Shown: piece after piece, positions 12,906 to 42,693 of the stretch | Numbering within the stretch: position 1 is the stretch's first letter | How the letters are laid out: every line of letters begins with the position of its first letter | From: Gemmatimonadota bacterium | GTDB taxonomy: Bacteria; Gemmatimonadota; Gemmatimonadetes; Gemmatimonadales; GWC2-71-9 | Length of the DNA stretch: 64,000 nucleotides | Reading direction: 5' to 3' | Assembly (NCBI GenBank): GCA_041486305.1 | Contig: JBGPLG010000001.1 | Span: 5,544 to 69,543 of the forward strand | The notes under the pieces: model-generated | Told to the model about the DNA's origin: nothing | What the model saw: only the letters and a program-made list of their open reading frames with translations | Database searches by the model: none | Made by a program: the position numbers and the translations under genes

Positions 12906-14987
12906 CTAGCGCCTGCAATCGTACACCGGCGTCGCAACCGCCAGATCCCAGGTGGGACCGATCGGTCCCTCGTAGACCGTCGCCATCTGCCGGTTACGCA
13001 TGATCACCACCTGGGTCGTGCCTTCGAGGAGTTTCCACAGTCCGATCTCCAGGTCACCGTCCTTGATGAGCCCGGAACGGCGTTCAACATAATTGTTCTT
13101 GTCAACCAGATGGTTGTAGAGGTTATCGAAGTATGTCTGGGCCGCCGGCTCGTTCTTGAAGGCCAGCGTTATCCCCGAGACGACGGTTCCATCGGCCGCC
13201 AGGTACTCCGCCTCGATGGCATCGTTGATGACGTCGTCCAGCGACTCCGGAAGGTTGTGGATGGACTTGCGGTCGAAGCGCCCCCGCCGGCAACTGGTGT
13301 GATCGATCAGCGGACCGCTCGAAGGGGTGGCTTTCTGCTGCGCGATCGCCGGAGGAGCATGCACCGCCTTGATGAAATCCGGCCCGCTACAGTCCCGGCC
13401 TTCGACCCCTTCGGTGAATGCGTCGATCCGCTGCCCCCCGGACCCATGCGCGCCGCTCTGGAACCACTCCACCCCCAGCGGGTCCTTCATTTCGAGCAGG
13501 GCGGTCACGGCCTCGTTCTGGTCTCCCGCATCGAGAAACCCCTTCGTTTTCGCATCCCGGGTCCATCGCCCCGCAAGACAGTCTGCCCCCAGCTCGGTCT
13601 CGAGGCTCCACTTCCCCGCCAGTGGACCCAGCTCACCGCGGAGATCCTGGACCAGATGCCCCCATTCGTGCGCCAGGACGAAGGCCGCGGCAAAATCTCC
13701 GTTCCCTTTCCACAGTCTCTGGAGCAAGCCTGCATCGTAATAGATGTGACGGTCGCCTCGGCAATACGTTGCGTTGTTGGTCCGGGGCGGGCAGGATAGC
13801 GAGAACATGGAGTAGGGCCCCACATCAGCCGGAGGACGATAAGTGGTGCCGAGCTGGAAGCTCCAATACCCATTAATGAGCCGCCGGCTGCCGGCCACGA
13901 GGGAATCGAGATTGGCCCAGTTGTCTCGGGCGAGCGAGACGGCCTGCTTTCCCGCCCCGAGAACGACCGCTCCCACCAGCACCACGACGATGACAGCCAG
14001 GGTATGCGCGTGGCGGATGACCCGCCGGATCAGCGCGGCCTGCGCCTCCATTCGGGTACGCTGCGCAGGGCTGCTCTCACGGGCTGCGCGGTGCTTGAGC
14101 AGCGCCAGTTGAACCTGCCGGTTGTGCAGCGCGGCCAAGTGCAGACACTGACCGACCCGGCCCCTGACCAGCAGCCGCAGATAGCTGAACTGGCGGCGCC
14201 AGAAGCTGTCCAGTAACGCAACCTCCTCGGCGGAAACGACGCCGGCGTCGGCCTCCTCCGCCAATTGCGCCCGTAGGACCCGTCGCTCCCGGGTGAGCGA
14301 GAATAGGCCGACTCCGACCAGCAGGAGCAGGGGAAGTAGCACCGCCAGCCACGCGCGGAAATGGCCCTCCGCTCCACCGAGCCCATTGCCATGAGCCAGG
14401 ATTCGAAAGAGGCCGTTGAGCAGCGTCGCGCCGGCGAGGCCCACGATGGCCCAGAGCCCCTCAGCCAGTCGTCCCCGGGCATCGAACGCCGCGCCGATAC
14501 CCAGGCCGGCCACGGCGGCAAAGACGCCGTGGGACAGTCCCCCGGCCGCGGCGTTGAGCGCGGTCTGGAGCGGCGAGGTCCCTGCGTGAAGGGCGATGAG
14601 GTGCGCGGTCTGAAGCTCGCGCACCAGGGTTTCTCCCGTGCTGTACCCCAGCCCAACGGCGATGCCGTAGATGATGCCGTCGGTCAGGTCGCTGAATTCC
14701 GACCACCCCCGGATGCGGGACACCGCGGAGAAGATCCCGATGCCCGCCAGGAGAGAGATGAGCTTGGTCGCTTCGACCGCAAACGCCCCGTGCCAGATCG
14801 AGCCGTTCAGCGCCTCCGATCCGATGAAGAGCTCTGCCACGCACGCGCCCAGCAGACCGAGCCCGAATACGGTCGCAAGGGCCCAGACCGGCTCCCGTTC
14901 GTTGACGTCCACGAACCGGACGAAGGTCAGGTAGATCCAGGCGACCCCAACGGTGATCAGGATCTCGCCCAGATAGCCGACGGGCAT
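12906..14987 (-). CDS. fusion protein: N-terminal PrsW-family intramembrane protease domain plus C-terminal YpfJ-like neutral zinc metallopeptidase domain
   Basis: The N-terminal multi-TM region carries PrsW-like motifs (FVDVNEREP, AVEATK, GLGYSTGE, HGVFAA). After a linker and a further TM helix, the C-terminal region has YCRGDRHIYYD, AHEWGHLVQ, ELGADCLAG and GAHGSGGQR, as in the Zn_peptidase/YpfJ family. A strong GAAGGAGG Shine-Dalgarno lies upstream. Confidence 0.75.
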   Translation of the reverse strand: MPVGYLGEILITVGVAWIYLTFVRFVDVNEREPVWALATVFGLGLLGACVAELFIGSEALNGSIWHGAFAVEATKLISLLAGIGIFSAVSRIRGWSEFSDLTDGIIYGIAVGLGYSTGETLVRELQTAHLIALHAGTSPLQTALNAAAGGLSHGVFAAVAGLGIGAAFDARGRLAEGLWAIVGLAGATLLNGLFRILAHGNGLGGAEGHFRAWLAVLLPLLLLVGVGLFSLTRERRVLRAQLAEEADAGVVSAEEVALLDSFWRRQFSYLRLLVRGRVGQCLHLAALHNRQVQLALLKHRAARESSPAQRTRMEAQAALIRRVIRHAHTLAVIVVVLVGAVVLGAGKQAVSLARDNWANLDSLVAGSRRLINGYWSFQLGTTYRPPADVGPYSMFSLSCPPRTNNATYCRGDRHIYYDAGLLQRLWKGNGDFAAAFVLAHEWGHLVQDLRGELGPLAGKWSLETELGADCLAGRWTRDAKTKGFLDAGDQNEAVTALLEMKDPLGVEWFQSGAHGSGGQRIDAFTEGVEGRDCSGPDFIKAVHAPPAIAQQKATPSSGPLIDHTSCRRGRFDRKSIHNLPESLDDVINDAIEAEYLAADGTVVSGITLAFKNEPAAQTYFDNLYNHLVDKNNYVERRSGLIKDGDLEIGLWKLLEGTTQVVIMRNRQMATVYEGPIGPTWDLAVATPVYDCRR

Positions 14988-15077
14988 TGAGGGCCTCCTT
15001 CAGGGAACGACGTCTCGAGTGGTCGGGGGTGGAGCAGGGGAGAACTTACCCGTTGTGCGGAAAAGCGTTAGCCGTCC

Positions 15078-16043
15078 TTAGGGCACCGCCTTGAGGGTGC
15101 CCGCAACCAGGGAATCCGCCGCGGCCCTGACCCACGCCGCGAGTGCCGGGGAAATCCGGTTCGCCAGCCGGGGGTTGGCCTCGTAGCGCAGCACCCCGCC
15201 GGCCAGCCCGAATGATTCCACTCTCGGCGCGAAACTTCCCTCCTTGACCTTTCGGGCGATGGCCAGAAACGCCCGGGGCAGGTCGATCACCACGGAACCC
15301 ACGACGCGATCGGGGGCCAGGGCGGTTTGATCGGCATTGGCGCCGAACGCATAGGCTCCCGGACTCTCCTTCACCGCCTGGAACAGTCCCAGTGCGGCTT
15401 GGTCCGCGTTGTGGTGCAGCATGTCGACACCCACGCGGATCATCGCCAGAGCCGCCTCGCGACCCGCCGCCGCGTCATCGAACGTATTGAGATACGCAAC
15501 CCGGCTGTCCACGGCCGGGTTCACCGCCTTGGCCCCGTGGAGCCAGCCTTCATAGCCTCGCTTGATGGGGGGCAGCTCGATTCCGCCGATGAAACCGATC
15601 TTGTTGGTTCTGGTCAGGCCCCCGGCAACCATACCGGCCAGGTACGTCCCCTCTTCGATGCCGAACACCATGGGAACTACGTTCCCCGCCGCCGATACCC
15701 GCTCTCCCGAAGTGACGACGAAGATCGTCTTCGGATACTCCGCTCCGATCCGCTCTGCAGGCCCCTGGAATTCGAAACCGTGCCCGAAGACCACGTCGTA
15801 GCCCTGCTCGGCGTAGGCCCGGAGCGCTTCCTGCTGCGCTCCGGGAGTTCGAGCCTCGACGTGGCTGATTTCGACGTGGAGTGAATCCCGGATGGCGATG
15901 AGCCCTGCATAGGCCCCGGAGTTCCATGCGGCGTCGGCAATGGAGCCCGGCGTGATGAGCGCGACGCGAAAGGCCCCCGCCGCACCGGGCTTCTGGCCAC
16001 AGGCAACGAGGGCGAGAATAAGAAGGGAAAGAACGCGGATCAT
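15078..16043 (-). CDS. BMP-family ABC transporter substrate-binding lipoprotein
   Basis: Lipobox LVACG. The body resembles the Med/PnrA basic-membrane-protein family (ITPGSIADAAWNSGAYAG). Confidence 0.9.
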   Translation of the reverse strand: MIRVLSLLILALVACGQKPGAAGAFRVALITPGSIADAAWNSGAYAGLIAIRDSLHVEISHVEARTPGAQQEALRAYAEQGYDVVFGHGFEFQGPAERIGAEYPKTIFVVTSGERVSAAGNVVPMVFGIEEGTYLAGMVAGGLTRTNKIGFIGGIELPPIKRGYEGWLHGAKAVNPAVDSRVAYLNTFDDAAAGREAALAMIRVGVDMLHHNADQAALGLFQAVKESPGAYAFGANADQTALAPDRVVGSVVIDLPRAFLAIARKVKEGSFAPRVESFGLAGGVLRYEANPRLANRISPALAAWVRAAADSLVAGTLKAVP

Positions 16044-16077
16044 GGCAGGATCATAACACGTGCATACCTCCTATCGC

Positions 16078-16488
16078 TTACGGCTCGCTGCTCCCCGCGG
16101 TCACGCTTTCCATCTTCACCCCCCCGTTGACCTGGCCGCCCTCCTGAATCAGCAACCGGCAGGTCGCGATGTCACCATGCACCACGGCGGTGGCCTGCAG
16201 CTCGACCCGCTCCTCCCCGTGAATGCACCCGTGCACCCTCCCGGCCACTACCGCTTCGCGCGTCACCACGTCGCCCTCGACGATGCCACCCTCCGAGATC
16301 AGCACCTGATCGCCGGCGTGCACATTGCCGATCACCCGTCCCTCGATCCGGACCACGCCCTCGGCCTGCAGATCGCCGGCGATGGTGAGATCCTTCGCGA
16401 CGATCGACAGCCCGCCCTGCGCGCCGTTCATTCGGCGGCGTTCGATGGGCGGAGCCGCGGTGGTCGAGGGTGCCGAGAAGATGCCCAT
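16078..16488 (-). CDS. bactofilin (polymer-forming cytoskeletal protein)
   Basis: 136 aa with the repetitive beta-helix pattern of DUF583 (IAGDLQAEGVVRIEGRVIGNVHAGDQVLISEGGIVEGDV...). Its start shares 1 nt with the M23 stop (TGATG). Confidence 0.9.
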   Translation of the reverse strand: MGIFSAPSTTAAPPIERRRMNGAQGGLSIVAKDLTIAGDLQAEGVVRIEGRVIGNVHAGDQVLISEGGIVEGDVVTREAVVAGRVHGCIHGEERVELQATAVVHGDIATCRLLIQEGGQVNGGVKMESVTAGSSEP

Positions 16489-17282
16489 CAGTGTTCCTCC
16501 TTCACCATCGTGCCGGGATCGATCGAGACCCCGTTGAGCCGGATCTCGAAATGAAGATGTGGTGCCGATGACCGGCCGGTGTTGCCGCTTCGGGCAATCA
16601 CCTCGCCGGCGTTCACCCGAGCCCCCTGAACCGCGATGATCCGGGACAAGTGGCCATACATCGACTGATACCCGTCCGGGTGCTCGAGGAGCACAAAACG
16701 CCCGTACTGCTCATGTTCTCCGGTCTGCAGGACGATGCCCCCGCCGGAGGCCCGGACCAGGCTTCCTACCGGTACTGCGATATCGATGCCAGGGTGCTCG
16801 TCCTGGGTGGTATCCGCAAGCGCCTGGCCCCGCGTGACATAGCCGCGCTCATCAAGAGGCCAGTGCCGGGGAGTGGAGGAGCCGATCTCGTAAACTGCCC
16901 CGGAATCCGGGCCGGCCGCGAAGAGGGCCGGAGCCACCGGGAGCGAGCTGCCGAGCATGACGGGGTCGGGGACGATGTCGGCGCCCACCATCTTGCGGAG
17001 TCGTTCGTAGTTCATCTCCAGGCTGTCCATTGCGACCGCCAGTTCGCGGACCCGGAGATTGTCGGTGCGCAGGCGGTCTACCTCACGCTCCAGTGGTGGG
17101 ACCCGCAACGCCTGCCGCGCGATGGGCCCGTAGAAGGCGACGCCCAGCACCAGCAGAACTGTGAGGACCACGCCGAGGATCAGCGCACCGCGCAACGCCC
17201 AGACCGGAATCCGGTAGGTGCTGGACTGAAGCGCCCCGTCCCGCTGCACAATGATGGAGACGCTGCGCCGCCAGCCGATCAT
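16488..17282 (-). CDS. bitopic M23-family metallopeptidase (LmdC-like architecture)
   Basis: Short N-terminal cytoplasmic tail, one TM helix (ALILGVVLTVLLVLGVAFY), a coiled-coil-like linker, and an M23 domain with HPGIDI and APHLHFE catalytic motifs. Confidence 0.9.
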   Translation of the reverse strand: MIGWRRSVSIIVQRDGALQSSTYRIPVWALRGALILGVVLTVLLVLGVAFYGPIARQALRVPPLEREVDRLRTDNLRVRELAVAMDSLEMNYERLRKMVGADIVPDPVMLGSSLPVAPALFAAGPDSGAVYEIGSSTPRHWPLDERGYVTRGQALADTTQDEHPGIDIAVPVGSLVRASGGGIVLQTGEHEQYGRFVLLEHPDGYQSMYGHLSRIIAVQGARVNAGEVIARSGNTGRSSAPHLHFEIRLNGVSIDPGTMVKEEH

Positions 17283-18178
17283 CCTCCGAAGGGCTCGCCC
17301 AGGATGAGCTCGAGCAGGCGCGCCAGATCCTCGTTCGAGTAGTAGTGAATGGTGACCGCGCCGCGACCCCGCCGCCGGGCGGTCACCCGGACATCGGTCT
17401 GCAGCCGCTTGCGCAGCGAGTCTTCGACCCGTCGCACGTCGGCGCTGGGATTCCTTGCTTCGGCCTTGGGCCGCCGGATTGTCCGGCGCACCACCGGAAT
17501 CTCGGTGAGGCGCTCACCCCGCACCCGCGCCTCGAGATCGCGCACCGACCACTCGGCCGCGGCGCATTCCCGCCCGAGACGCGTCATTTCCCTCAGATCG
17601 GAAAGCGACAGCAGCGCGCGGGCGTGACCTTCCGAGAGCTTCCGGTGCTGCAGCAGGTCCTGTACCTCCTGCGGAAGCCGGAGCAGCCGGAGCGTATTGC
17701 TGACCGTCGAGCGGTCTTTCCCGACCAGCCGCGCCACTTCCTGCTGCGGCATGGAGAACTCCTGCATCAGGCGCTGATAGCCCATCGCCGCGTCGATCGG
17801 CGAGAGATCGTCGCGCTGCAGGTTCTCGATCAGGGCCAACGTGAGCAGGGCGCGGTCATCGACGTCCTTCACCACCGCGGGGACCTTCTGCCAGCCCAGC
17901 CGCTGTATCGCACGATAGCGGCGCTCGCCTGCGATCAGCTCGTAACGACCGTCAGGCCTCGAACGCACCACGATCGGCTGCAGCAGCCCGGAGGCCGCGA
18001 TGGAATCCGCCAGCTCCTTGAGTTGGGCTTCGTCGAACTCTCGCCTCGGCTGATAGGGATTGGGCCCGATCGAGGACACCGCGAGCTCTCGAAGACCCCC
18101 ATTCGCCTGCGCATCTTCCCGGGTGATCGGACCGAGCAACGCCTCGAGGCCACGTCCCATCCGCCTGGTCTCGGTCAT
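17279..18178 (-). CDS. parB: chromosome partitioning protein ParB/Spo0J
   Basis: GRGLEALL N-terminus, ParB box (LIENLQRDDLSP), HTH region. ATGA overlap with parA. Confidence 0.95.
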   Translation of the reverse strand: MTETRRMGRGLEALLGPITREDAQANGGLRELAVSSIGPNPYQPRREFDEAQLKELADSIAASGLLQPIVVRSRPDGRYELIAGERRYRAIQRLGWQKVPAVVKDVDDRALLTLALIENLQRDDLSPIDAAMGYQRLMQEFSMPQQEVARLVGKDRSTVSNTLRLLRLPQEVQDLLQHRKLSEGHARALLSLSDLREMTRLGRECAAAEWSVRDLEARVRGERLTEIPVVRRTIRRPKAEARNPSADVRRVEDSLRKRLQTDVRVTARRRGRGAVTIHYYSNEDLARLLELILGEPFGG

Positions 18179-19017
18179 GTATGTACCTCCCCCGTGGCAC
18201 GGGCGGTTCCGTGAGGCAATTCGATGTCGCCGGCCGAGTCGGATGCTTCGGCCCGGCGAAGCAGCTCCTGCGCAACCGACAAGTAGCTCTTGGCGCCCAC
18301 CGACTGCACGTCATACATCAGGATCGGCTTGCCGAAGCTGGGCGCCTCGGCGAGACGAACGTTCCGTGGAATGACGGTCTTGAAGACCTTGGCACCGAAG
18401 TACTCCTTTGCGTCCTTTGCCACCTGACGGCAGAGATTGAGCCGCGAATCGTACATGGTGAGCAAGACCCCGTCGAGCGCCAGCTCGGGATTGAAGTTCT
18501 GCTGCACCAGACGAATGGTGTTGAGCAGCTGCGAGATTCCCTCGAGCGCGTAGTACTCGCATTGAATCGGAACGATCACGCCGTGCGCCGCCGAAAGGAC
18601 GTTGAGCGTGATCAGGCCGAGGGAGGGAGGACAATCGATGATGATGTAGTCGAAAGACGCCAGCGCGGGGCGCAAGGCCTCACGCATTCTGGCCTCGCGC
18701 TTCTCGACGTTTACCAACTCCAACTCGGCACCGACCAAGTCCTGTGTCGCTGGAAGAATCGAAAGGAAAGGAAGCTCCGCGTCTTGCTGAATGACTTCGT
18801 GAATCGGCCGACGGTCCACCAGGAGATCATAGAGCGAGGGCCGAGACGGATCCTTGGCCACACCAACACCGCTCGTTGCGTTGCCCTGAGGGTCCGCATC
18901 GACCAGCAAGGTGCGCCGCTCGGCGATGGCCAGGGAAGCGGCCAGGTTAACGGCCGTTGTAGTCTTCCCTACCCCGCCCTTTTGATTGGCGATCGCAACA
19001 ATACGGGCCATTGCCAT
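18175..19017 (-). CDS. parA: chromosome partitioning ATPase ParA/Soj
   Basis: Deviant Walker A (ANQKGGVGKTTT) and full-length Soj-like sequence. Confidence 0.95.
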   Translation of the reverse strand: MAMARIVAIANQKGGVGKTTTAVNLAASLAIAERRTLLVDADPQGNATSGVGVAKDPSRPSLYDLLVDRRPIHEVIQQDAELPFLSILPATQDLVGAELELVNVEKREARMREALRPALASFDYIIIDCPPSLGLITLNVLSAAHGVIVPIQCEYYALEGISQLLNTIRLVQQNFNPELALDGVLLTMYDSRLNLCRQVAKDAKEYFGAKVFKTVIPRNVRLAEAPSFGKPILMYDVQSVGAKSYLSVAQELLRRAEASDSAGDIELPHGTARATGEVHT

Positions 19018-19121
19018 ATCACGTAACTATATGTTTTGAAAGAAGTTATAACTAGAACTACCGGGACCTTCATGCGTCGGTGTTTAACAATATACCTGTT
19101 TGGCGGTTACTGTGCTAGGCT

Positions 19122-19137
19122 GGTTTCACGTGAAACG
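19122..19137. other. parS centromere-like site 1 (GGTTTCACGTGAAACG)
   Basis: 14/16 match to the canonical parS TGTTNCACGTGAAACA. The core GTTTCACGTGAAAC is perfect. It lies about 105 bp upstream of parA. Confidence 0.85.
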
Positions 19138-19262
19138 GTACAATTACCTGCGGCTTGGAAGCAAACACAACAATGGTGGACCAGGAATGGGGGAACGCAA
19201 GGATGTTTCTCACACCGAGGGAACCGAGCTCCCGGGGAATCCGCTCACTACCAGGCATTGTC

Positions 19263-19278
19263 GGTTTCACGTGAAACC
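19263..19278. other. parS centromere-like site 2 (GGTTTCACGTGAAACC, perfect palindrome)
   Basis: It has the same 14-bp core as site 1 and lies 141 bp from it, 20 bp from the mnmG stop. Confidence 0.85.
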
Positions 19279-19297
19279 GGCCTTGGTAACCAGGATC

Positions 19298-21151
19298 CTA
19301 TCCTCTGATCTTGAGCACCTCCATGACCAAGTTCTGCAAATCGCTGGGTGAGACGCCCGGGATTCTCCCCGCTTGTCCGAGGCTGGAGGGGCGCTGTCGC
19401 GTCAGCTTCTCTCGGGCCTCGAAGGAGAGGCTCTCCAAGGAATGAAACTCGAGCCATCCAGGGATGCTGAACTCCTCCATCTCCAGCATCTTGCCGGCCA
19501 TATCTCGCTCCCGTTCCATGTATCCACCGTACCGGAGCTCGATGGCGGCCCATTCCTCAGCTCCTCCGGTGGATTCGAATCCCGATGCACCCAGGAGTTG
19601 CTGCAGCTCAACTGCTGGTCGCCGAGCGAGTTCCGCTAGCCGTACGGGCTCCGCGATGGCTGCTGAACCTGCGGCTTCAAGGACCGGGTTGGCGAGTGAA
19701 GGGGGGATGGGGGTCTCCACCGCGAATGTCATGACTGCTTCCTCGGCCGCCATCCTCGATTCCGCTGTGTGCCTTTCCGCCTCCGAGAGCAATCCCAGTC
19801 GCAGGGCGGTCGGGAAGAGGCGCCGAAGTGCGTTGTCCTGGCGGAGGATCAACCGGAACTCCGCGCGGGATGTAAAGAGGCGGTAGGGCTCGTCTACCCC
19901 GCGAGTCACGAGGTCGTCCACAAGCACACCGAGAAATGCTTCATCCCGACGAAAGCGGACTGGGGCCTGGTCCAGAGCGGAGGCGGCCGCGTTCAATCCA
20001 GCCACCACGCCTTGTCCTGCGGCCTCTTCGTACCCCGTCGTACCATTGATCTGCCCCGCGAAATACAGCCCGTCGACACCCCGAACCCTGAGGGTCGGTT
20101 CAAGTTGGGTGGGGGGGAAATAGTCGTACTCAATCGCATAGCCGGGCCGAGTCATTTCGACCTGCTCGAGTCCCGGCACGGAGCGCAGGTACTCGAGTTG
20201 TACGCCGGGCGGGAGGGAGGTGGAAAGGCCGTTGACGTACATCTCCGTGGTGTCGAGCCCTTCCGGTTCGAGAAAGACCTGATGCCGAAGCGCGTCGGGG
20301 AATCGCACGATCTTGTCTTCGATCGAGGGGCAGTACCGGGGCCCGCGTCCGCTGATGGCTCCGCCATACATGGCAGACTCGGACAGGTGTGCGGTGATGA
20401 TGTCCCTGAGGCGCTCATTCGTATGGGTCAGGTAGCAGGGCATTTGGGCAGGATGTTCGGCGCGCTCGTAAAAGGAGAACCAGTAGGGACGCTTCTCTCC
20501 GTCCTGCCGCGCCAGCGAGGCCAGGTTTGCCGTTCGCCCGTCGATCCGCGGGGGCGTTCCGGTCTTGAAGCGTTCGACTGTAACACCAATATTCACAATG
20601 GCTTGCGATATCTCTACGGAAGGGGCTTCACCGGCCCGGCCCGCCGGTACCGGAGTAGCCAGTCCCATGTGGATCTGACCTCTCAGAAACGTGCCGGCGG
20701 TAATCACAATCGAACGAGCCGAGTATCGTCGACCGTCGGTGGTCTCGACACCGGCGATCCGGGTTCCTTCAAAAAAGAACCGCGCCGCCGTTCCCTGGGC
20801 GAACCGGAGGTTCGGCCGTCGCTCGAGGAGCGTGCGCACCGCGCGGCGGTAGAGTCCCCGGTCGCACTGTGATCGGGGTGACCAGACCGCCGGTCCCTTC
20901 GAGCGATTGAGCATGCGGAACTGGATCCGGGCCATGTCGGTCGCTCGCCCCATAATCCCGCCCAGCGCATCGACTTCACGCACCACGGTGCCCTTGGCGA
21001 TGCCCCCAATGGCCGGGTTGCACGACATCTGCCCGATCGTCTCCAGGTGTTGGGTCAGCAAAAGCGTCCGAGCCCCGGACCGCGCGGCCATCGCGCAGGC
21101 CTCGGTGCCGGCGTGCCCTCCCCCAATCACCAGAACATCGTAGCGGTCCAT
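19298..21151 (-). CDS. mnmG: tRNA uridine 5-carboxymethylaminomethyl modification enzyme MnmG (GidA)
   Basis: FAD-binding N-terminus (DVLVIGGGHAGTEA) and full-length GidA similarity. Confidence 0.96.
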   Translation of the reverse strand: MDRYDVLVIGGGHAGTEACAMAARSGARTLLLTQHLETIGQMSCNPAIGGIAKGTVVREVDALGGIMGRATDMARIQFRMLNRSKGPAVWSPRSQCDRGLYRRAVRTLLERRPNLRFAQGTAARFFFEGTRIAGVETTDGRRYSARSIVITAGTFLRGQIHMGLATPVPAGRAGEAPSVEISQAIVNIGVTVERFKTGTPPRIDGRTANLASLARQDGEKRPYWFSFYERAEHPAQMPCYLTHTNERLRDIITAHLSESAMYGGAISGRGPRYCPSIEDKIVRFPDALRHQVFLEPEGLDTTEMYVNGLSTSLPPGVQLEYLRSVPGLEQVEMTRPGYAIEYDYFPPTQLEPTLRVRGVDGLYFAGQINGTTGYEEAAGQGVVAGLNAAASALDQAPVRFRRDEAFLGVLVDDLVTRGVDEPYRLFTSRAEFRLILRQDNALRRLFPTALRLGLLSEAERHTAESRMAAEEAVMTFAVETPIPPSLANPVLEAAGSAAIAEPVRLAELARRPAVELQQLLGASGFESTGGAEEWAAIELRYGGYMERERDMAGKMLEMEEFSIPGWLEFHSLESLSFEAREKLTRQRPSSLGQAGRIPGVSPSDLQNLVMEVLKIRG

Positions 21152-27670: not shown

Positions 27671-28957
27671 TCACGTGAGGCCACCCAGCCGCTCAATGAT
27701 CAGGCGATCCAGCGCCTCACGTACCGGGGGGGAGGCCACTTCCGCCGTGACCTCGGCGGCAAAGGCGTAGGTCAGCAGACGCTTTGCGGAGGCGCGCGGA
27801 ATGCCGCGGCTCTGCAGGTAAAAGAACGCCGTCTCGTCCAGCCGTCCCACGGTGGCGCCATGGGTGCAGCGCACGTCGTCGGCAAAGATCTCGAGCTGCG
27901 GCTTGGTGTCGACCCGGGCGCCGTCGGACAGCAGCAGGTTTCGGTTGGTCTGCTTGGCGTCGGTCTTCTGGGCTTCGGGCCGGACGAAAACCTTCCCGTT
28001 GAATACCGCACGGCTCTTCCCCTCGAGCACGCCCTTGTAGACCTCCCAGCTCCGGCAGTTGGGGCGATCGTGGTAGATCACCGTGTGATTGTCCACCAGC
28101 TGGCTGCCTCGTCCGAGGTAGAGTCCGTAAAGAAGCGTCTCGACGTTTTCGTCTCCCAGCCGGGCCCGCAGATCGTGGCGGGCGATTGCGCCACCCATCG
28201 ACAGGGTAAAGGAGCGATAGTGGCTGTCCCGGGCCTGCTCCACCCGGGTCAGCCCGATATGGTATGCCGATTCGCTTTCCCGCTGAATCCGGCTGTGCTC
28301 GACCCAGGCGCCCGCGCCGACGGTCACGTCGGTTACCGCATTGGTGAACGAGGCGGCGCCGCCCAGCCCCGCATAGCTCTCCACGAACTGCGCCCGGGCG
28401 CCCGGCGCCGCTGCGATCAGGGAGCGGACCTGAGCGGTCCGGCCGGCGCTGTCGGCCGTGGTGAGGAAGAGCAGATGGATCGGGTCGGCCACCACGACAC
28501 CGGCCCCGACGCGGACGACGGCGCCGTCCCTGGCGAACGCCGCGTTGAGCGCGGAGAACGGCGTTGCCTCCGCAAGATCGAGGAGCTCCGGATGGCCGGC
28601 CAGGACATCCGCCAGGGGTTCGATGGTCACTCCCGAGGGGAGTCCGGACCGGTGGGAGAGTTCCGCGTCATAGCGGCCATTGACGAAGACCACGGTGATC
28701 CAGCTCGACGGGCCGACCCGGTAGGGGTCCAGCTCCTCGGGGGCCGGTCGCCGCGCCGGCGGCACCGCGGGGGTCCAGCCGATTTTCTCGATGGCCGACA
28801 CGGGCGTGAAGCGCCATTCCTCGTCCCGCGAGGAAGGAAAGCCGGCCGCGGCGAACCGGCCCCACGCCTCTCGCCGGCGCATCAGCAGCTCGGCGGGGCC
28901 CTCGGCGCCCCCGTTGCGGCTGAACTTCTCGAAGGCCTCGGCCAGCGCCCTGGTCAC
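27671..28957 (-). CDS. sufD: Fe-S cluster assembly protein SufD
   Basis: The GTG start at 28957 overlaps the sufC stop (GTGA). The C-terminal region is SufD-like (TDAKQTNRNLLLSD..A.VDTKPQLEIFADDVRCTHGATVG). Confidence 0.85.
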   Translation of the reverse strand: MTRALAEAFEKFSRNGGAEGPAELLMRRREAWGRFAAAGFPSSRDEEWRFTPVSAIEKIGWTPAVPPARRPAPEELDPYRVGPSSWITVVFVNGRYDAELSHRSGLPSGVTIEPLADVLAGHPELLDLAEATPFSALNAAFARDGAVVRVGAGVVVADPIHLLFLTTADSAGRTAQVRSLIAAAPGARAQFVESYAGLGGAASFTNAVTDVTVGAGAWVEHSRIQRESESAYHIGLTRVEQARDSHYRSFTLSMGGAIARHDLRARLGDENVETLLYGLYLGRGSQLVDNHTVIYHDRPNCRSWEVYKGVLEGKSRAVFNGKVFVRPEAQKTDAKQTNRNLLLSDGARVDTKPQLEIFADDVRCTHGATVGRLDETAFFYLQSRGIPRASAKRLLTYAFAAEVTAEVASPPVREALDRLIIERLGGLT

Positions 28958-29715
28958 GCCGGGGCGCCCTCGGCGACGCCGGTCAGCCACTCGTATCCCT
29001 TGGCCTCGAGTTCCAGGGCGAGCTCCCGGCCGCCCGACTTGACGATTCGCCCGTCGGCGATCACGTGCACAAAATCGGGAACGATGTAATCGAGCAGCCG
29101 CTGATAGTGTGTCACGACGATCGTGGCCCGATCCGGCCGCCGGAGCGAGTTGACTCCCTTGGCCACGACGCGCAACGCGTCGATGTCGAGACCCGAGTCG
29201 GTCTCGTCGAGGATGGCGAGCGTCGGCTCGAGCACGGCCATCTGTAGGATCTCGTTGCGCTTCTTCTCTCCCCCGGAAAAGCCGCTGTTCACCGCGCGAC
29301 TCATGATATCGGGCTCCCACTCCACCAGCCGGAGCTTCTGCTCCAGCAGGTCGAGGAAGTCCATCGGATCCAGTTCTTCCTCGCCCCGGGACTTCCGGAT
29401 GGCGTTGTACGAGGCCCGCAGGAAGTAGGCATTGGTGACACCGGTGATTTCCACCGGATACTGGAACGCCAGGAAGAGGCCGGCCTGGGCACGCGCTTCC
29501 GGCTCCAGGTCCAGCAGGTCGGCGCCCTGAAACCGCACCGTGCCTTCGGTAACGGTATAGGCGGGATGACCCGCCAGGACCTGGGCGAGGGTGCTCTTGC
29601 CGGAGCCGTTGGGACCCATGATGGCGTGCACCTCGCCGGGTCTCACGACGAGGTCGATGCCCTTGAGAATCTCCTTCTCGCCGGCGGAGGCCCTGAGGCC
29701 CTGGACTTCGAGCAT
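28954..29715 (-). CDS. sufC: Fe-S cluster assembly ATPase SufC
   Basis: Starts at MLEVQGLRASAGEKEILKG. Walker A GPNGSGKST, signature FSGGEKKR, Walker B AILDE. Confidence 0.95.
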   Translation of the reverse strand: MLEVQGLRASAGEKEILKGIDLVVRPGEVHAIMGPNGSGKSTLAQVLAGHPAYTVTEGTVRFQGADLLDLEPEARAQAGLFLAFQYPVEITGVTNAYFLRASYNAIRKSRGEEELDPMDFLDLLEQKLRLVEWEPDIMSRAVNSGFSGGEKKRNEILQMAVLEPTLAILDETDSGLDIDALRVVAKGVNSLRRPDRATIVVTHYQRLLDYIVPDFVHVIADGRIVKSGGRELALELEAKGYEWLTGVAEGAPA

Positions 29716-29720
29716 CGCGC

Positions 29721-31154
29721 TCACCCCACGCTCCCTTCCAGGCTGACGCCGAGGAGCTTCTGTGCTTCGACCGCGAACTCCATGGGCAGCTCCTTGAAGA
29801 CTTCCTTGCAGAACCCGTTCACGATCATCGAAATCGCATTCTCGGTATTGAGGCCGCGCTGCTTGCAATAGAAGATCTGGTCTTCGCCGATCTTCGAGGT
29901 GCTGGCCTCGTGTTCCACCGACGCGGTGGGGTTCTGCACCTCGATGTAGGGAAACGTGTGGGCTCCGCAGCGGTTTCCGATCAGCATCGAGTCACATTGA
30001 GTGTAGTTGCGGGCGTTGTCCGCCTTGGGCAAGACCTTCACCAGGCCACGGTAGCTGTTGTTCCCCTGGCCAGCGCTGATGCCCTTGGATACGATCGTGC
30101 TGCGGGTATTCCGGCCCATGTGAATCATCTTGGTGCCGGTGTCGGCCTGCTGCCGGTTGTTGACCACGGCCACGGAGTAGAACTCCCCGACCGAATCGTC
30201 GCCCTGGAGGATGACGCTGGGATACTTCCAGGTAATGGCCGAACCGGTCTCGACCTGGGTCCAGGAGATCTTGGCCGCTCGCGACGCCTTGCCGCGCTTG
30301 GTGACGAAATTGTAGATGCCGCCCTTGCCCTCTTCATCTCCGGCGTACCAGTTCTGCACCGTGGAGTACTTGATCGTCGCCGCGTCGAGTGCCACCAGCT
30401 CGACCACCGCGGCATGGAGCTGGTTCTCGTCCCGCTTCGGCGCGGTGCAGCCCTCGAGATAGCTCACCGAGGCACCCTCGTCCGCGACGATGAGGGTTCG
30501 CTCGAACTGGCCGGTGTTCTGGGCGTTGATTCTGAAGTACGTGGAGAGGTCCATCGGGCAGCGGACGCCCTTCGGCACATACACGAAAGACCCGTCGCTG
30601 AACACCGCGGAGTTGAGTGCCGCAAAGAAGTTGTCGCTGGCCGGCACCACCGACCCCAGGTACCTCCGCACCAGGTCGGGATGCTCGCGGACCGCTTCAG
30701 AAAAGGAACAGAAGACGATCCCCATCTCCCCCAGCGCCTTCTTGTACGAGGTGCCCACGGACACCGAGTCGAAGATGGCGTCCACCGCAACCCCCGACAG
30801 GATCTTCTGCTCGGTCAGCGGGATGCCGAGTTTGGCGTACGTCTCGAGGAGCTTGGGGTCGACCTCATCGAGGCTCCCCAGCGGCGTCTTGGTCTTGGGG
30901 GCGGAATAGTAGATCGAATCCTGGTAGTCGATGGGCGGATACTTGACGTTGGGCCAATGCGGCTCGGTCATTTTGAGCCAACCGCGATAGGCCTTGAGCC
31001 GCCACTCGAGCAGGAATTCGGGCTCGTTCTTCCTGGCCGAGATCATCCGAACGATCTCCTCGGACAACCCCTTGGGTACGGTGTCAGCCTCGATGTCGGT
31101 GACGAAGCCGTACTTGTACTCGCGATTGACCAGCGACTCTACCGGACTGCTCAT
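29721..31154 (-). CDS. sufB: Fe-S cluster assembly protein SufB
   Basis: Starts at [17 protein letters not shown]. Full-length SufB similarity. AGGGGA Shine-Dalgarno. Confidence 0.95.
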
Positions 31155-31220
31155 CGATCCCCTGTTCCCCGACCGTGAAGCACCTTGGCACCCGCAGGCT
31201 TCTGGTCCAGTTGAAAACAA

Positions 31221-31249
31221 ATCCTAAGTAAAATAGTCGGGATTGTCAA
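31221..31249 (-). promoter_or_regulatory. putative suf operon promoter
   Basis: On the minus strand: TTGACA (31249-31244), 17 bp, TAGGAT (31226-31221). It lies about 65 nt upstream of the sufB ATG. Confidence 0.4.
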
Positions 31250-31510
31250 AATTGCGGAAGGGATGGAAGGGCAAGGAGTTATAGCCGGTTACCTCGTTTC
31301 GGGATTTGAGGCTCCGGGAATGCCGGCCGACGCGAGGGGTCAGGTCGACCGATCTAGGATCGGACTCGCGAATGAACCTGCGCCTCTCATTAGTAGTTTG
31401 ATATACCACCCCTACAGCATGTCTTCCCAAGTGGCTGGGAGGCTCCCAAATCCCGATTCCTGCTCCGGTTCCTCTTGAGGATTCCTGTTCTTGGCCGGAG
31501 ATTGTCAGAC

Positions 31511-32083
31511 ATGACCATCCACCGCATCCGGCTCCTGGGAGACCCGATCCTCCGGACCCCCTGTCAGCCGATCACCAAGCCGCGATCGACCGCGGTCCGG
31601 GTGATCGTGGACGATCTGCGGGAGACCCTCCGGGACTGGCAATCGCGCTTTGGGAGCGGGCGGGCGATCGCCGCGCCCCAGATCGGCGCACCGGTGCGGA
31701 TTCTCCACGTGGAGATGGATCAGCCCTGGACCCTCATCAACCCGGAAGTGGTGGATATCGGCACTGAGGACTTCACGGTCTGGGACGATTGCTTTTCGTT
31801 TCCCAACCTGCTGGTCCGGGTCCAGCGGGCCTATCATGTTCGAATCCGCTATCAGGACCTCAAGGGCGAGACCCAGGAGCAGGATCTGGAGCGGGATCGG
31901 GCCGAGCTCCTGCAGCACGAAATCGACCATCTCGACGGGGTCCTGGCGGTCAACCGGGCTCACGGCCCGGACCCATTCTGCCTCCGCGAAGAGTGGAACC
32001 GTCTGTATACCGCCGCGGACCGCTACGGTGAACCGGAGCTGCGGTCGGAGCAGGTTCCCGCGCCGCTTTCCTCGCTGCTGTAG
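31511..32083 (+). CDS. def: peptide deformylase
   Basis: AAPQIG, and HEIDHLDG (metal-binding HExxH). A C.SFP region stands where EGCLS is expected. Starts at MTIHRIRLLGDP. Confidence 0.88.
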   Translation: MTIHRIRLLGDPILRTPCQPITKPRSTAVRVIVDDLRETLRDWQSRFGSGRAIAAPQIGAPVRILHVEMDQPWTLINPEVVDIGTEDFTVWDDCFSFPNLLVRVQRAYHVRIRYQDLKGETQEQDLERDRAELLQHEIDHLDGVLAVNRAHGPDPFCLREEWNRLYTAADRYGEPELRSEQVPAPLSSLL

Positions 32084-32096
32084 CCGAGGGGGTTCC

Positions 32097-32801
32097 ATGG
32101 GACAGATGATCGAGTTTCCGGCCAACGGCCATTCCGGGTCCGGTTATCTCGCGACGCCATCTTCATCGCCTGGGGGGCCTGGCGTGCTGGTCATTCAGGA
32201 GTGGTGGGGGCTGGTCGACCACATCAAGGACGTCTGCGATCGTCTGGCGCGGGAGGGGTTCGTGGCGCTGGCGCCCGACTTCTACCACGGCGCCGCAACC
32301 AAGAGTCCGGACGAGGCCGGAAAGCTGTTCATGGCGCTCAACATCGCCAAGGCGGGGGCGGATCTGCGCGGCGCCGCCGATGCACTGTTGGCCCGGCCCG
32401 AGGTGACTTCCCGGCGGCTGGGCGTGGTGGGGTTCTGCATGGGCGGGCAACTCGCAATGTACGCGGGAGCCGAGTACCCCGATCGAATCGCCGCGGCGGT
32501 CAACTTCTACGGGATTCATCCCAACGTGCGGGTCGACCCCGGCAAGTTGCGGGTACCGCTCCAGGCGCACTTCGCCAAACGGGACAACTCGGTGAAGGAG
32601 GCGGATGCCCGCGCCCTGGTCGGTCGAATCGTCGCCGCGGGTGGCTCCGTCGAAGCGTATTACTACGACGCGGACCACGCCTTCTTCAACGACAGCCGTC
32701 CCACCGTGTACGACAAACAGTCGGCGAAGGACGCGTGGCAACGGACCCTCGAGTTCCTCCGCAAGCACACCGAGGTCAGAACCACCGCCCGACCCGGATG
32801 A
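32097..32801 (+). CDS. dienelactone hydrolase family protein
   Basis: VLVIQEWWGL, nucleophile region GFCMGG, and a C-terminal DHAF motif. Confidence 0.85.
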   Translation: MGQMIEFPANGHSGSGYLATPSSSPGGPGVLVIQEWWGLVDHIKDVCDRLAREGFVALAPDFYHGAATKSPDEAGKLFMALNIAKAGADLRGAADALLARPEVTSRRLGVVGFCMGGQLAMYAGAEYPDRIAAAVNFYGIHPNVRVDPGKLRVPLQAHFAKRDNSVKEADARALVGRIVAAGGSVEAYYYDADHAFFNDSRPTVYDKQSAKDAWQRTLEFLRKHTEVRTTARPG

Positions 32802-34824
32802 AGGCGGCGCGGCGCCCGTTTGAAGCGAATCCGTACTCGAACGCCACCGGCCCGATCGGCGTCGCGGCGCCCAAACCCAGCCGGATCCCCGCCAGCCAGT
32901 TGACCCGCTCGAAAAGCGCCCCGCCGTTTGCCGACCTTCCTGCCGCGACCAGCATCCGGAGTGCAATTGGACCCTTGAGTTGCCAGGCGCTCTGGATCCG
33001 CGCGTAGACCTCTCGATCGCCCCGGCGCTCCCCGATATGCAAACCGGGAAAGCCCTCGTCTCCCCCAAGCTCGAACGCCTGGTGGATCGGAAGATGGTGC
33101 CCGACGCCGAGCCGGACCTCCGGCGCCAGCGTGAGGCGCCCCGAACCGATCGCGGTCCCCGCCGTAATCCGGGCGGATTGATAGTCTCCGGTCCAGGTCA
33201 GCTCGACGCTGCCTTCGGCGCGGCGTCCCGGTTCGAGCCGCGCGCTGAAAAACGTTCCGCCGGTCGAGCGGTTCTCGCCCTCAGCCGTGCGCCAGGTAGC
33301 CACCTGGCCTCCCGCCTGCGCCCTCCAGGCGCCAAGCCGGGCCCATTCCGCCCCGGCAGAGGCGCCGGCCTCATGGGCCTCAAGCGTTGCGAAGCTGGTG
33401 CCGTCGGGAGTGAACTGTCGCACGCCGTCCGACAGCAGGTGAAACGAAGCGAGCGGCGTCAGGCTCATCCGGCCGACGCCGATGTGGGTCAACAGGCTGC
33501 CGGTGAGGTTGTTCCGGAAGCGTCCCAGGGAGAGGACCGCGCTGCCCTCAATTCCCCGGACCGTGAAACGGTCGAGCGCGCCGAGCCAAAGCCGGCCACC
33601 CAGGTCGTGGTCGTAAGCCAGCCCGAGGCCGGCGACTCGGCGGGCCGATGGTGTGAACTGGATCCGGAAATCGATGGTGTCGGGACCGCCGACCGGTCCG
33701 AGCCAGACTTCGCGGAACGTCTCCAGGTTGGGCATCTCGGAGAGCTGGGCCTCGAGCGCAGCCAGGTCGAGCCGTTGCCCCGCGGCGAGTCCCAAGACCC
33801 GGCCCATGGTTTCCCGGTCGCGGGTGTCTCCGTTGACGACCTCCCACCGGCGAAGCCAGCCGGGCAACGGGGGAATGACGGGTGGAGGGCGGCGGGGAAG
33901 ACACGCCATCCCCCCCAACATCGAGTCAGCCGCGGCGCGCCCGTTCCTCACCAGACGATCGCGATTGCCGGGCTGGAAATCGAGATTCGCGAAGCCGCGA
34001 ACATCCGGCCGGATATAGACGTCGTCCGGACCCAGGGCCGGCATCGGTTGGGTGAAGAGAAAACTCGCCAGCCGCCCCGCCACGGTGCCCGGAGAGGTCA
34101 TGTCGGCGCTGTCCAGCTGGGCCGATTCATCCTTGAGGTCCACCACGATCAGTCGCCGCGCCCCCGCCGCCCGCGCTGCCTCGACCGGGAGGTTGGCGGA
34201 GATCCCACCATCGATGTAGTACCGGTCGCCGATCCGTTCGGGCGTGTAAACCAGGGGAATTGCGATCGAGGCCCGCACCGCCTGGGCGAGGTCGCCGCCC
34301 CTGAGCGGCACGGCTTCCCGGGTTCGAAGGTCGGTGGCTACCGCGCGAAACCGGATCGGGAGGCGGTCGAAGTCGCCGCGCGCCAGAAGGTTGCCTCGCA
34401 GGAGGATGCGATTGAGCGCGGCATCGGTTCGGAGCTCCGAGGCGCCGCGGGTAACCAGCGAGAACCCCCGCCCGCCCTGCTCCCAGAGGAGGAGCGGGAG
34501 CAGCGTTTCCCAGTTGTGGGGGGGCAGGGTGGAGAAGTTTCCGGTGACCGCGGCCGGCGGGAGAACCCGAACGATCGAATCGATCTGCCGGCCCGAAAGG
34601 CCGCTGGCATAAAGGGCACCGAAGATCGAGCCGATACTGGTGCCGACGATCAGGTCGGGGCGCACACCGAGGCTGTCCAGCGCGAGAAGCACGCCGATAT
34701 GGGCGTAGCCCTTGGCGCCGCCGCCCGCCAGGACCAGAGCGACCGGGCCATCGGGGCATTGCTGGCCCTCGAGTGGCGAGCCGGCGATCAATGCAGCGGC
34801 GAGCAGGCGCAACGGAACACGCAT
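32776..34824 (-). CDS. patatin-like phospholipase fused to an Omp85/surface-antigen beta-barrel (PlpD-like, type Vd secretion architecture)
   Basis: Signal peptide; patatin motifs GGGAKG, GTSIGS and DGG; a POTRA-like middle region; a C-terminal barrel ending in ...RVGRWF. Confidence 0.85.
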   Translation of the reverse strand: MRVPLRLLAAALIAGSPLEGQQCPDGPVALVLAGGGAKGYAHIGVLLALDSLGVRPDLIVGTSIGSIFGALYASGLSGRQIDSIVRVLPPAAVTGNFSTLPPHNWETLLPLLLWEQGGRGFSLVTRGASELRTDAALNRILLRGNLLARGDFDRLPIRFRAVATDLRTREAVPLRGGDLAQAVRASIAIPLVYTPERIGDRYYIDGGISANLPVEAARAAGARRLIVVDLKDESAQLDSADMTSPGTVAGRLASFLFTQPMPALGPDDVYIRPDVRGFANLDFQPGNRDRLVRNGRAAADSMLGGMACLPRRPPPVIPPLPGWLRRWEVVNGDTRDRETMGRVLGLAAGQRLDLAALEAQLSEMPNLETFREVWLGPVGGPDTIDFRIQFTPSARRVAGLGLAYDHDLGGRLWLGALDRFTVRGIEGSAVLSLGRFRNNLTGSLLTHIGVGRMSLTPLASFHLLSDGVRQFTPDGTSFATLEAHEAGASAGAEWARLGAWRAQAGGQVATWRTAEGENRSTGGTFFSARLEPGRRAEGSVELTWTGDYQSARITAGTAIGSGRLTLAPEVRLGVGHHLPIHQAFELGGDEGFPGLHIGERRGDREVYARIQSAWQLKGPIALRMLVAAGRSANGGALFERVNWLAGIRLGLGAATPIGPVAFEYGFASNGRRAAFIRVGRWF

Positions 34825-34938
34825 GGGGAAAAGCTAACCCCGGCTCCCCTTGCGATACGCGGCCCGGTTCCTTAATTCTGTCCCCAGAGCAGGAACGTTT
34901 GCGGGGACGCCCAACGCCCACCCGGGAGACGCGCAGTC

Positions 34939-35202
34939 ATGGCGTATGTGATTACCGAAGCATGCATCGGCACCAAGGACAAAGCCTGCGTCGACGTGTG
35001 CCCGGTCGATTGCATCTATGAGGGCGAGGATCAGCTCTACATTCACCCGGACGAGTGCATCGACTGCGGGGCGTGCGAGCCGGAGTGCCCCGTGACGGCG
35101 ATCTTCCCGGAAGAGGATGTTCCGCCCAACCTCGAGAGCTACATCGAAAAGAACCGCGAGGTCTTCAATTCCGATGTTCCCCCGGGGAGGCCGAAGAAGT
35201 AG
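34939..35202 (+). CDS. fdxA: 7Fe ferredoxin ([3Fe-4S][4Fe-4S], FdxA type)
   Basis: [37 protein letters not shown]. Confidence 0.93.
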
Positions 35203-35240
35203 GACTGAGGATTGAGGATGGAGGATGGAGGGCAACTGAA

Positions 35241-35276
35241 AGGCGGCGCTCCCGGTCGGGGCGCCGCCTACGTGTT
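35241..35276 (+). terminator. Rho-independent terminator of the ferredoxin gene
   Basis: AGGCGGCGC-loop-GCGCCGCCT stem followed by the T-rich ACGTGTTTCT. It is nested inside a larger imperfect repeat-armed hairpin (35203-35304). Confidence 0.7.
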
Positions 35277-35448
35277 TCTACTGAACCTCAGTCCTCGATC
35301 CTCAAAAGTGGGCGACCCGCGAGACCGGCATATGCGCCGATCCCGGGGTCGTTGGGGGAGAAGACCTGCATGAGGCTTGGCAGTGATCCGATATAGAGCA
35401 TCGGTTCGGCCCGCCATACTAATAGACGCCCGGGCCCCGGAAATGGTT

Positions 35449-36645: not shown

Positions 36646-36709
36646 GCAAGTCGCTCCGGGAATGCCTTAAGGTACGCCGGTCTCTGCCGGACTCGCTACT
36701 ATTCGGCCC

Positions 36710-37849: not shown

Positions 37850-37862
37850 TTGTAATTACAAC
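37849..37862. repeat. perfect AT-rich palindrome GTTGTAATTACAAC, the core of the motif GTAGTTGTAATTACAACA (37846-37863)
   Basis: It overlaps the rnd stop codon and ends 5 nt before the ATG at 37867. It matches 52904-52921 at 16 of 18 positions. Confidence 0.7.
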
Positions 37863-37866
37863 ATCT

Positions 37867-38547: not shown

Positions 38548-38557
38548 GGAAAATGTC

Positions 38558-39196: not shown

Positions 39197-39213
39197 CGGG
39201 CGGAGCCCTCGCC

Positions 39214-42296: not shown

Positions 42297-42328
42297 GAGG
42301 GAGGAGGGAGCCTGCTCTCTCCTCCCTC
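42297..42328. terminator. hairpin with GAGGGAGGAG / CTCCTCCCTC arms between convergent genes
   Basis: 10-bp perfect stem (42297-42306 with 42319-42328). Confidence 0.6.
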
Positions 42329-42332
42329 TTCG

Positions 42333-42662
42333 TCACCCCAGAAACGCCCGCACTCTTGGATCCATGCGCTCCGGCGTCCAGTAAGGCTCCCACACCAGAT
42401 CGATCGCTACGCTCTTCACGCCTTCCAGGTCTTCGAGGACGAGCTTGGCGTCTTCCATAATTTCCGCACCGGCCGGACAGCCGGGCGAGGTGAGGGTCAT
42501 TTTCACCGTCACATCGCCTGCCGGGCTCACGATGGCGTCGTACACCAGGCCGATATCGATAATATTGAGTCCGAGCTCGGGGTCCTTCACCGCACGGAGG
42601 GCCTTCTTCACCGTTTCGGGGCTCGGGACGATTCGCGACGGGTCCATGCCTTCGGTGGCCAT
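42333..42662 (-). CDS. DUF59/MIP18-family Fe-S assembly protein (SufT-like)
   Basis: VKDPELGLNIIDIGLVY...MTLTSPGCP. Confidence 0.85.
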   Translation of the reverse strand: MATEGMDPSRIVPSPETVKKALRAVKDPELGLNIIDIGLVYDAIVSPAGDVTVKMTLTSPGCPAGAEIMEDAKLVLEDLEGVKSVAIDLVWEPYWTPERMDPRVRAFLG

Positions 42663-42693
42663 GGGAGAACAATGGGCATCCCGGGCCGGCCGG

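Follow-up and report, generated by a model that had tools for sequence, protein, structure and literature searches.

In a 64,000-nucleotide stretch of genomic DNA from a Gemmatimonadota bacterium of the order Gemmatimonadales (contig JBGPLG010000001.1; the whole stretch is called the window below), four minus-strand open reading frames (ORFs) encode, in this order, the chromosome partition proteins ParA and ParB, a peptidase of the M23 family, and a bactofilin. The parA-parB-M23-bactofilin block is kept together in Gemmatimonadota, Candidatus Eisenbacteria and Zixibacteria, and it is probably a conserved, co-expressed operon that combines a ParABS system with an LmdC/BacA-type pair of hydrolase and bactofilin, and in which translation of the M23 gene is slaved to that of parB. 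Bactofilins are known as guides of cell-wall enzymes and, from a single species, as a scaffold for ParABS, and we know of no explanation ever given for the frequent occurrence of bactofilin genes in the neighborhood of parAB. The block provides a concrete and testable case in which to ask whether chromosome segregation and local remodeling of the cell wall are co-regulated or physically linked.

Conservation of the parA-parB-M23-bactofilin block

Genomes were scanned with one representative per GTDB species, and 80 loci were returned, all of them from Gemmatimonadales or Gemmatimonadota, with an M23 identity of 47-92%. Wherever the contig allows the order to be followed, gidA, parA, parB, the M23 gene and the bactofilin gene are colinear on one strand in all 80 loci, with the exception of one Gemmatimonadales locus (L011) that has no bactofilin match and a gap of 222 bp in its place. 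More distant homologs were reached by exact-protein look-ups, and the same parA-parB-M23-bactofilin block was found in marine Gemmatimonadota and Longimicrobiales, in two lineages of Candidatus Eisenbacteria, in Zixibacteria (where, in a closed genome of 2.56 Mb, it stands as an isolated block between divergently oriented neighbors), and in one further lineage (L087). The flanks vary by lineage, i.e. gidA, gidB or efp upstream and bmp, NIF3, an FGE-sulfatase gene or moxR downstream, and since the flanking genes change, the block itself is the conserved unit. An earlier reading of the window, made from the DNA sequence without database searches (the sequence-only reading), had raised the question whether the synteny is kept across the phylum or confined to this genome; the block is present across Gemmatimonadota and in Eisenbacteria and Zixibacteria, and thus in at least three related phyla.

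A metagenome scan with a Zixibacteria protein as the seed gave another set of 80 loci, ranging from 35 to 70% in guanine plus cytosine (GC) content. When the counts are restricted to loci with enough flanking sequence, the gene directly upstream of the M23 gene encodes ParB in 61 of 65 loci, a bactofilin gene follows it downstream in 58 of 59, and 46 of 49 have both neighbors. Other arrangements were encountered as well: an M23-bactofilin pair without parAB upstream in three metagenome loci (L137, L138 and L148), a parA-parB-M23 group followed directly by NIF3, without a bactofilin gene, in one locus (L089), and M23 homologs that stand alone in Hydrothermae. The peptidases form a subfamily of small (roughly 260-aa) LmdC-like M23 proteins whose genes are nearly always located between parB and a bactofilin gene in at least three phyla, and whose description appears to be new.

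Gene overlaps and translational coupling

Pfam searches confirmed the identities that had been assigned to all four ORFs by the sequence-only reading, and the coordinates of the genes (Table 1) match those given there. Its three overlapping junctions were likewise recovered with their exact sequences, namely ATGA at parA/parB (18175-18178), ATGA at parB/M23 (17279-17282), and TGATG at M23/bactofilin (16486-16490). Junction spacing was compared over all fetched loci, most of which are from Gemmatimonadales. A 4-nt overlap is found at the parA/parB junction in 74 of 86 loci and at the parB/M23 junction in 79 of 88, and the M23/bactofilin junction shows a 1-nt overlap in 47 of 87 loci and a gap of 1-3 nt in a further 27. 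Judging by this conservation in related loci, the overlap arrangement is beyond chance.

Shine-Dalgarno sites at functional spacing (3-12 for the bactofilin gene) were counted in the Gemmatimonadales loci (L003-L082). Such a site precedes parB in 68 of 79 relatives and the bactofilin gene in 73 of 80, whereas the M23 gene has one in only 3 of 81 loci; in the window, a GGAGG abuts the M23 ATG with zero spacing (17279-17290). For parA the count is 4 of 73 relatives, and no site is present in the window. The Shine-Dalgarno site of the bactofilin gene is encoded within the C-terminal VKEE residues of the M23 protein (Table 1), and these residues may be conserved for that reason. Because the ATGA overlap is kept while a Shine-Dalgarno site of its own is almost never present, the M23 gene appears to be translationally coupled to parB in Gemmatimonadales. 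Outside that order, the gap between parB and the M23 gene measures about 54-112 nt in Eisenbacteria, Longimicrobiales, the closed Zixibacteria genome (L174) and L087, and in marine Gemmatimonadota the two genes overlap by 1 nt; these spacings indicate that the 4-nt coupling is a feature of Gemmatimonadales and not general to the block. It has been reported that expression of lmdC must be precisely regulated (PMC10945521), and a hydrolase that is scarce and made in proportion to ParB would fit this need.

From the overlaps and the lack of terminator-like sites, we infer that the genes from parA to the bactofilin gene are co-transcribed. A scan of positions 14900-19400 for sigma-70-like promoters and intrinsic terminators gave none, the consensus being of the Escherichia coli type, which may not apply to Gemmatimonadota.

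ParA, ParB and parS sites

The ParA translation carries the deviant Walker A motif KGGVGKT. In ParB, the N-terminal peptide GRGLEALL, the CTP-binding motif GERRYRA, a helix-turn-helix (HTH) domain and a C-terminal dimerization domain can be recognized, and the protein scores 191 bits against TIGR00180, above the cut-off. The gidA-parA spacer contains a pair of palindromes resembling parS (Table 1), and each agrees with the parS consensus in 14 of 16 positions. By chance, 0.03 such sites would be expected in the window, and two matches were reached in 0 of 100 shuffles. The corresponding spacer holds one or two parS-like sites in most related loci, among them those of Eisenbacteria (L088) and L087. 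By its motifs (Walker A of ParA; CTPase, HTH and dimerization domains of ParB) and the two palindromes nearby, the locus is to be classed as a canonical chromosomal ParABS locus. An assignment of ParB as the related protein Noc was considered and rejected, because the score against the Noc model (245 bits) falls below its cut-off of 315 and because a ParA partner and parS sites are present.

The parS pair is an addition to the sequence-only reading, in which it is absent. The C-terminus of ParA in the window (18175-18255) extends about 25 residues past the usual end of Soj-type proteins (RRAEASDSAGDIELPHGTARATGEVHT), and the length of ParA varies from 261 to 294 aa in distant relatives.

The M23 peptidase and the bactofilin

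The M23 protein was modeled with AlphaFold2 (AF2) from a 50-sequence alignment that reaches down to 30% identity, and the model has a mean predicted local distance difference test (pLDDT) score of 88; it supersedes an earlier run on a shallow alignment of close homologs, in which the M23 domain scored below 50. The predicted parts are a β-hairpin (strands 7-13 and 20-26), a helix (27-59), a second helix (61-99), a disordered linker, and the M23 domain (140-260). The helix 27-59 is predicted with a pLDDT of 95-98 and gives the protein the bitopic topology of the LmdC type. The strands of the hairpin were predicted in two independent AF2 runs, and the motif is conserved across homologs. Between the transmembrane (TM) helix and the M23 domain, AF2 places a single helix of about 40 residues (61-99). 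As with lmdC, the M23 gene adjoins a bactofilin gene, here with a 1-nt overlap.

The zinc-binding and catalytic residues (H163-x3-D167, H211 and H242-x-H244) are invariant or nearly so in the 50 homologs, and the HxxxD and HxH motifs align to HxGxD and PHLHxE of NMB0315. In sequence and fold, the nearest matches are the active DD-endopeptidases MepM, ShyA and NGO1686/NMB0315, plus Csd1 of Helicobacter pylori. By the AF2 model, the M23 protein is LmdC-like in its anatomy, with a hairpin, a TM helix, a helix or coiled coil, and an intact M23 domain; the bitopic layout proposed for it in the sequence-only reading agrees with the model and with the intact HxxxD and HxH residues.

The core of the bactofilin is of the β-helical bactofilin/DUF583 type and is homologous to BacA of Caulobacter crescentus (2N3D, E = 1.2e-11), and also to the Thermus bactofilin 6RIA. 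Its N-terminus reads MGIFS, with M[GA]xF[ST] in relatives from Gemmatimonadales and MFGK in Eisenbacteria, and resembles a membrane-targeting peptide; the C-terminal tail is short (about 12 aa). No second ParB-like, bactofilin or M23 ORF was found within the 64-kb window at E ≤ 0.01.

Features of the locus and neighboring genes

The positions of the genes, sites and protein segments are collected in Table 1.

Table 1. Positions in the window of the four-gene block, its sites, the segments of the M23 protein, and the gene that follows
Feature	Position	Strand	Description
parS site 1, GGTTTCACGTGAAACC	19263-19278		gidA-parA spacer; 2 mismatches to TGTTTCACGTGAAACA; 14-nt palindromic core perfect
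parS site 2, GGTTTCACGTGAAACG	19122-19137		gidA-parA spacer; about 105 bp upstream of parA start
parA	18175-19017	-	280 aa; ParA/Soj-type partition ATPase; Pfam AAA_31 (1e-62), CbiA
parB	17279-18178	-	299 aa; Pfam ParB_N, HTH_ParB, ParB_C
M23 endopeptidase gene, LmdC-like bitopic	16488-17282	-	264 aa; Peptidase_M23 at residues 162-256, E = 1.8e-30
Cytoplasmic β-hairpin of M23 protein	aa 7-26, nt 17205-17264	-	AF2 prediction
TM helix of M23 protein	aa 27 to about 51, nt 17130-17204	-	AF2 prediction; hydrophobic stretch 28-51 read from sequence
Periplasmic helix or coiled coil of M23 protein	aa 61-99, nt 16986-17102	-	AF2 prediction
M23 domain	aa 140-260, nt 16503-16865	-	AF2 prediction
Shine-Dalgarno site of bactofilin gene, AAGGAGG	16496-16502	-	seven nucleotides upstream; inside the M23 C-terminal VKEE codons
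Bactofilin gene	16078-16488	-	136 aa; PF04519 at residues 28-124, E = 8.6e-24
bmp (Bmp/PnrA-type lipoprotein gene)	15078-16043	-	34 bp downstream of bactofilin gene; Bmp 1e-53; lipobox LVAC

The upstream neighbor of parA is mnmG/gidA (19298-21151), separated from it by a spacer of 280 bp. The rsmG/gidB gene, commonly located between gidA and parA, is missing from this spacer (19018-19297) and from the other Gemmatimonadales loci; in Eisenbacteria the upstream flank is instead yidC-jag-gidB (spacer compared with L088 and L091).

Downstream, many Gemmatimonadales loci have bmp after the bactofilin gene, and in six relatives (L005, L008, L040, L050, L072 and L077) bmp overlaps the bactofilin stop codon by 4 nt. 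With the E. coli-type consensus, no terminator-like site was found in the bactofilin-bmp interval of the window, and the transcription unit may run on into bmp and the subsequent ATP-binding cassette (ABC)-transporter genes. After bmp, the window contains a minus-strand ORF of 693 aa (12906-14987) with domains of a PrsW-type intramembrane protease and a putative neutral zinc metallopeptidase. A relative with a 76% identical M23 protein (L001) has a NIF3 (DUF34) gene directly after bmp, together with ABC-transporter genes, and for this reason the 693-aa ORF looks like an insertion in this genome.

Further away, at about 28000-44000, the cumulative GC skew passes through a shallow minimum and the predominant coding strand turns from minus to plus, which would fit a nearby origin of replication. 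DnaA was not found among ten large ORFs scanned around this minimum; the ten ORFs encode SufS, SufB/D, a patatin-like protein, an extracytoplasmic function (ECF)-type sigma factor, and HEAT-repeat proteins. The placement of the operon near the origin is taken from gidA and parS only. On the plus strand, a bacterial RNase P class A RNA was detected at 57229-57610 (292 bits), and ARAGORN reported a 95-nt tRNA-Phe at 48063-48157, within long overlapping ORFs, that looks doubtful.

Discussion

We favor, as the probable explanation, a ParABS locus that has been extended by a bactofilin/LmdC-type pair, so that the unit would read parS-parS, parA-parB-M23-bactofilin, possibly continuing into bmp. Transcription would start from the gidA-parA spacer, and ParB would load at the two parS sites by the promoter region, placing the operon inside its own partition complex. 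The M23 gene, having no ribosome-binding site of its own, would be translated by ribosomes that terminate on parB at the ATGA, and the hydrolase would be kept low and tied to ParB; the bactofilin gene, with its own strong Shine-Dalgarno site, would be translated independently and in larger amounts. The bactofilin would then form polymers at the cytoplasmic side of the membrane, held there by its N-terminal MGIFS, and recruit the M23 enzyme via the cytoplasmic β-hairpin, as BacA recruits LmdC, and the periplasmic M23 domain would cleave peptidoglycan cross-links locally and thereby shape growth. The gene linkage most likely reflects co-expression of two housekeeping cell-cycle modules, i.e. segregation and morphogenesis, from an ori-proximal operon, and an obligatory physical complex of the products is less likely. 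Were the genes only co-expressed, the block would still supply a useful annotation rule and an instance of differential translation within one operon, the hydrolase being held low by coupling and the polymer raised by its own Shine-Dalgarno site.

Several points weigh against this explanation. Promoters internal to the coding sequence are conceivable, as the E. coli-type promoter and terminator consensus may not suit Gemmatimonadota. The published membrane-targeting consensus of bactofilins is MFSKKKK (PMC12448750), and MGIFS is without its lysines, the hydrophobic Phe being present. The periplasmic part of the M23 protein has one helix of about 40 residues in a protein of 264 aa, whereas LmdC of Hyphomonas neptunium (Q0BYX6) is much larger and has three coiled-coil regions. 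Finally, the linkage of parB to the M23 gene is very deep and includes the locus without a bactofilin gene (L089), and this could point to selection for more than co-expression.

Physical coupling of the two modules is a possible but unlikely alternative. A membrane landmark of bactofilin and M23 protein would position the ParB-parS complex or ParA, or would be positioned by them, and segregation would be mechanically linked to local wall remodeling at, for example, a new pole, the division site or a bud site, as in BacNOP-PadC but without PadC. The persistence of the four-gene block across three phyla while its flanks shuffle speaks for such a link, as do the parB/M23 overlap and the missing Shine-Dalgarno site that tie M23 synthesis to ParB synthesis, the location of the operon within about 100-250 bp of parS, by which its products would be made at the partition complex, and the precedent of bactofilins that scaffold ParABS in Myxococcus xanthus (PMC5703909). 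It is opposed by the short tail of the bactofilin, by the lack in the window of a PadC-like protein with a ParB domain or of a second bactofilin, and by the fact that the modules separate in nature (L137, L138 and L148; L089; and the solitary M23 genes of Hydrothermae). Moreover, the gene for BacM of M. xanthus occupies the equivalent position, and no role of this bactofilin in the localization of ParA or ParB was detected (PMC5703909). The spatial coupling of origin segregation to peptidoglycan remodeling that the sequence-only reading had suggested was drawn from gene linkage and is not supported in the form given there; BacM is its closest tested precedent.

A wider proposal, which we consider decidedly unlikely, is that parS and the four genes together make up a segregation-morphogenesis supermodule that is ancestral in Gemmatimonadota, Eisenbacteria, Zixibacteria and perhaps further related lineages, with hydrolase and bactofilin made at the origin and marking the place of future wall remodeling. 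If this were true, an operon located inside its own ParB-parS complex, with M23 translation slaved to ParB, would imply local translation or transertion at the origin, and each newly segregated origin would mark a future site of wall remodeling, be it a new pole, a bud or a division site.

That the M23-bactofilin pair merely landed beside parAB in an ancestor and was kept there by inertia, with a promoter of its own and with overlaps that reflect high-GC compaction, is very improbable. Overlaps of 4 nt are indeed common in compact high-GC operons, and the parB-M23 gap of 54-112 nt in Eisenbacteria, Longimicrobiales, L174 and L087 leaves room for a promoter. However, the linkage persists in three phyla and at M23 identities as low as about 30%, with flanks that differ on both sides, and in 46/49 of the metagenome loci. 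The M23 gene also systematically lacks a Shine-Dalgarno site, such sites being present before parB and the bactofilin gene, and this would be difficult to account for if its translation did not depend on translation upstream. Scarcely tenable is the view of the M23 protein as a catalytically dead amidase activator like EnvC, NlpD or DipM: many coiled-coil M23/LytM proteins are non-enzymatic activators and NCBIfam gave weak, sub-threshold matches to the DipM, EnvC and NlpD models, but H163, D167, H211, H242 and H244 vary little or not at all among 50 homologs with identities as low as 30%, and the best sequence and fold matches are to the active endopeptidases MepM, ShyA and NGO1686.

Comparison with known systems

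The closest counterpart of the M23-bactofilin half is the LmdC-BacA pair of H. neptunium and Rhodospirillum rubrum (Pohl et al. 2024, PMC10945521), in which the M23 gene likewise lies directly upstream of the bactofilin gene and in the same direction. LmdC has DD-endopeptidase activity, and its cytoplasmic hairpin is the determinant of BacA binding (PMC10945521). Shared with the proteins described here are the bitopic M23 enzyme with a short cytoplasmic N-terminus, predicted here to form a β-hairpin next to the TM helix, and with an intact M23 domain, and a bactofilin with short tails; where LmdC has its periplasmic coiled coils, the protein in the window has a helix that may form a shorter one. 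Unlike LmdC-BacA, the pair in the window is joined to parAB by overlapping junctions and belongs to a different superphylum. Adjacency of bactofilin and M23 genes has been catalogued in 226 species (PMC10945521), and a text search of the supplement of that catalogue for 'Gemmatimon' gave no match. In the Csd1/Csd2-CcmA system of H. pylori an M23 peptidase is also functionally linked to a bactofilin, and the structure of Csd1 is among the best fold matches found here.

A connection between bactofilins and ParABS through an adaptor is represented by BacNOP-PadC of M. xanthus, in which ParA and ParB depend functionally on a bactofilin cytoskeleton; it scaffolds ParABS with the help of PadC, a ParB-like adaptor, of three bactofilins that assemble together, and of a longer C-terminal region of BacP (PMC5703909), and it is encoded away from parAB, unlike the block described here. 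Features of the PadC type (a ParB-like adaptor, several bactofilins, a long bactofilin tail) were not found within the 64-kb window, and the statement of the sequence-only reading that PadC is absent holds for the window, where it was checked and where no second ParB-like ORF is present.

The other half of the block also has counterparts, and the view of the sequence-only reading that a unit tying parAB to a bactofilin had not been described has to be given up. In M. xanthus, parA-parB-bacM(-MXAN_7474) are co-transcribed (PMC3899335), and BacM, whose gene comes directly after parAB, plays no part in the positioning of ParABS (PMC5703909). That operon resembles the present one in the bactofilin gene downstream of parAB and in the lipoprotein gene after it, as bmp here, and differs in belonging to another phylum and in having no M23 gene between parB and the bactofilin gene. 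In Bdellovibrio bacteriovorus, parA3-parB-bd3904 (bactofilin) are co-transcribed (PMC7186360, PMC10547168), with the bactofilin gene beside a canonical parAB next to parS, as here, and again without an M23 gene. Against the parAB-bactofilin operons of the BacM/Bd3904 type, the order and the strand are the same in the window, and the M23 gene is intercalated. A location of parAB next to an M23-bactofilin pair was not mentioned in the literature searched, and the novelty claimed for the single unit would hold for the combination of four genes and not for its halves. Both halves were known, i.e. parAB-bactofilin and M23-bactofilin, and what appears to be new is the description of the four-gene form.

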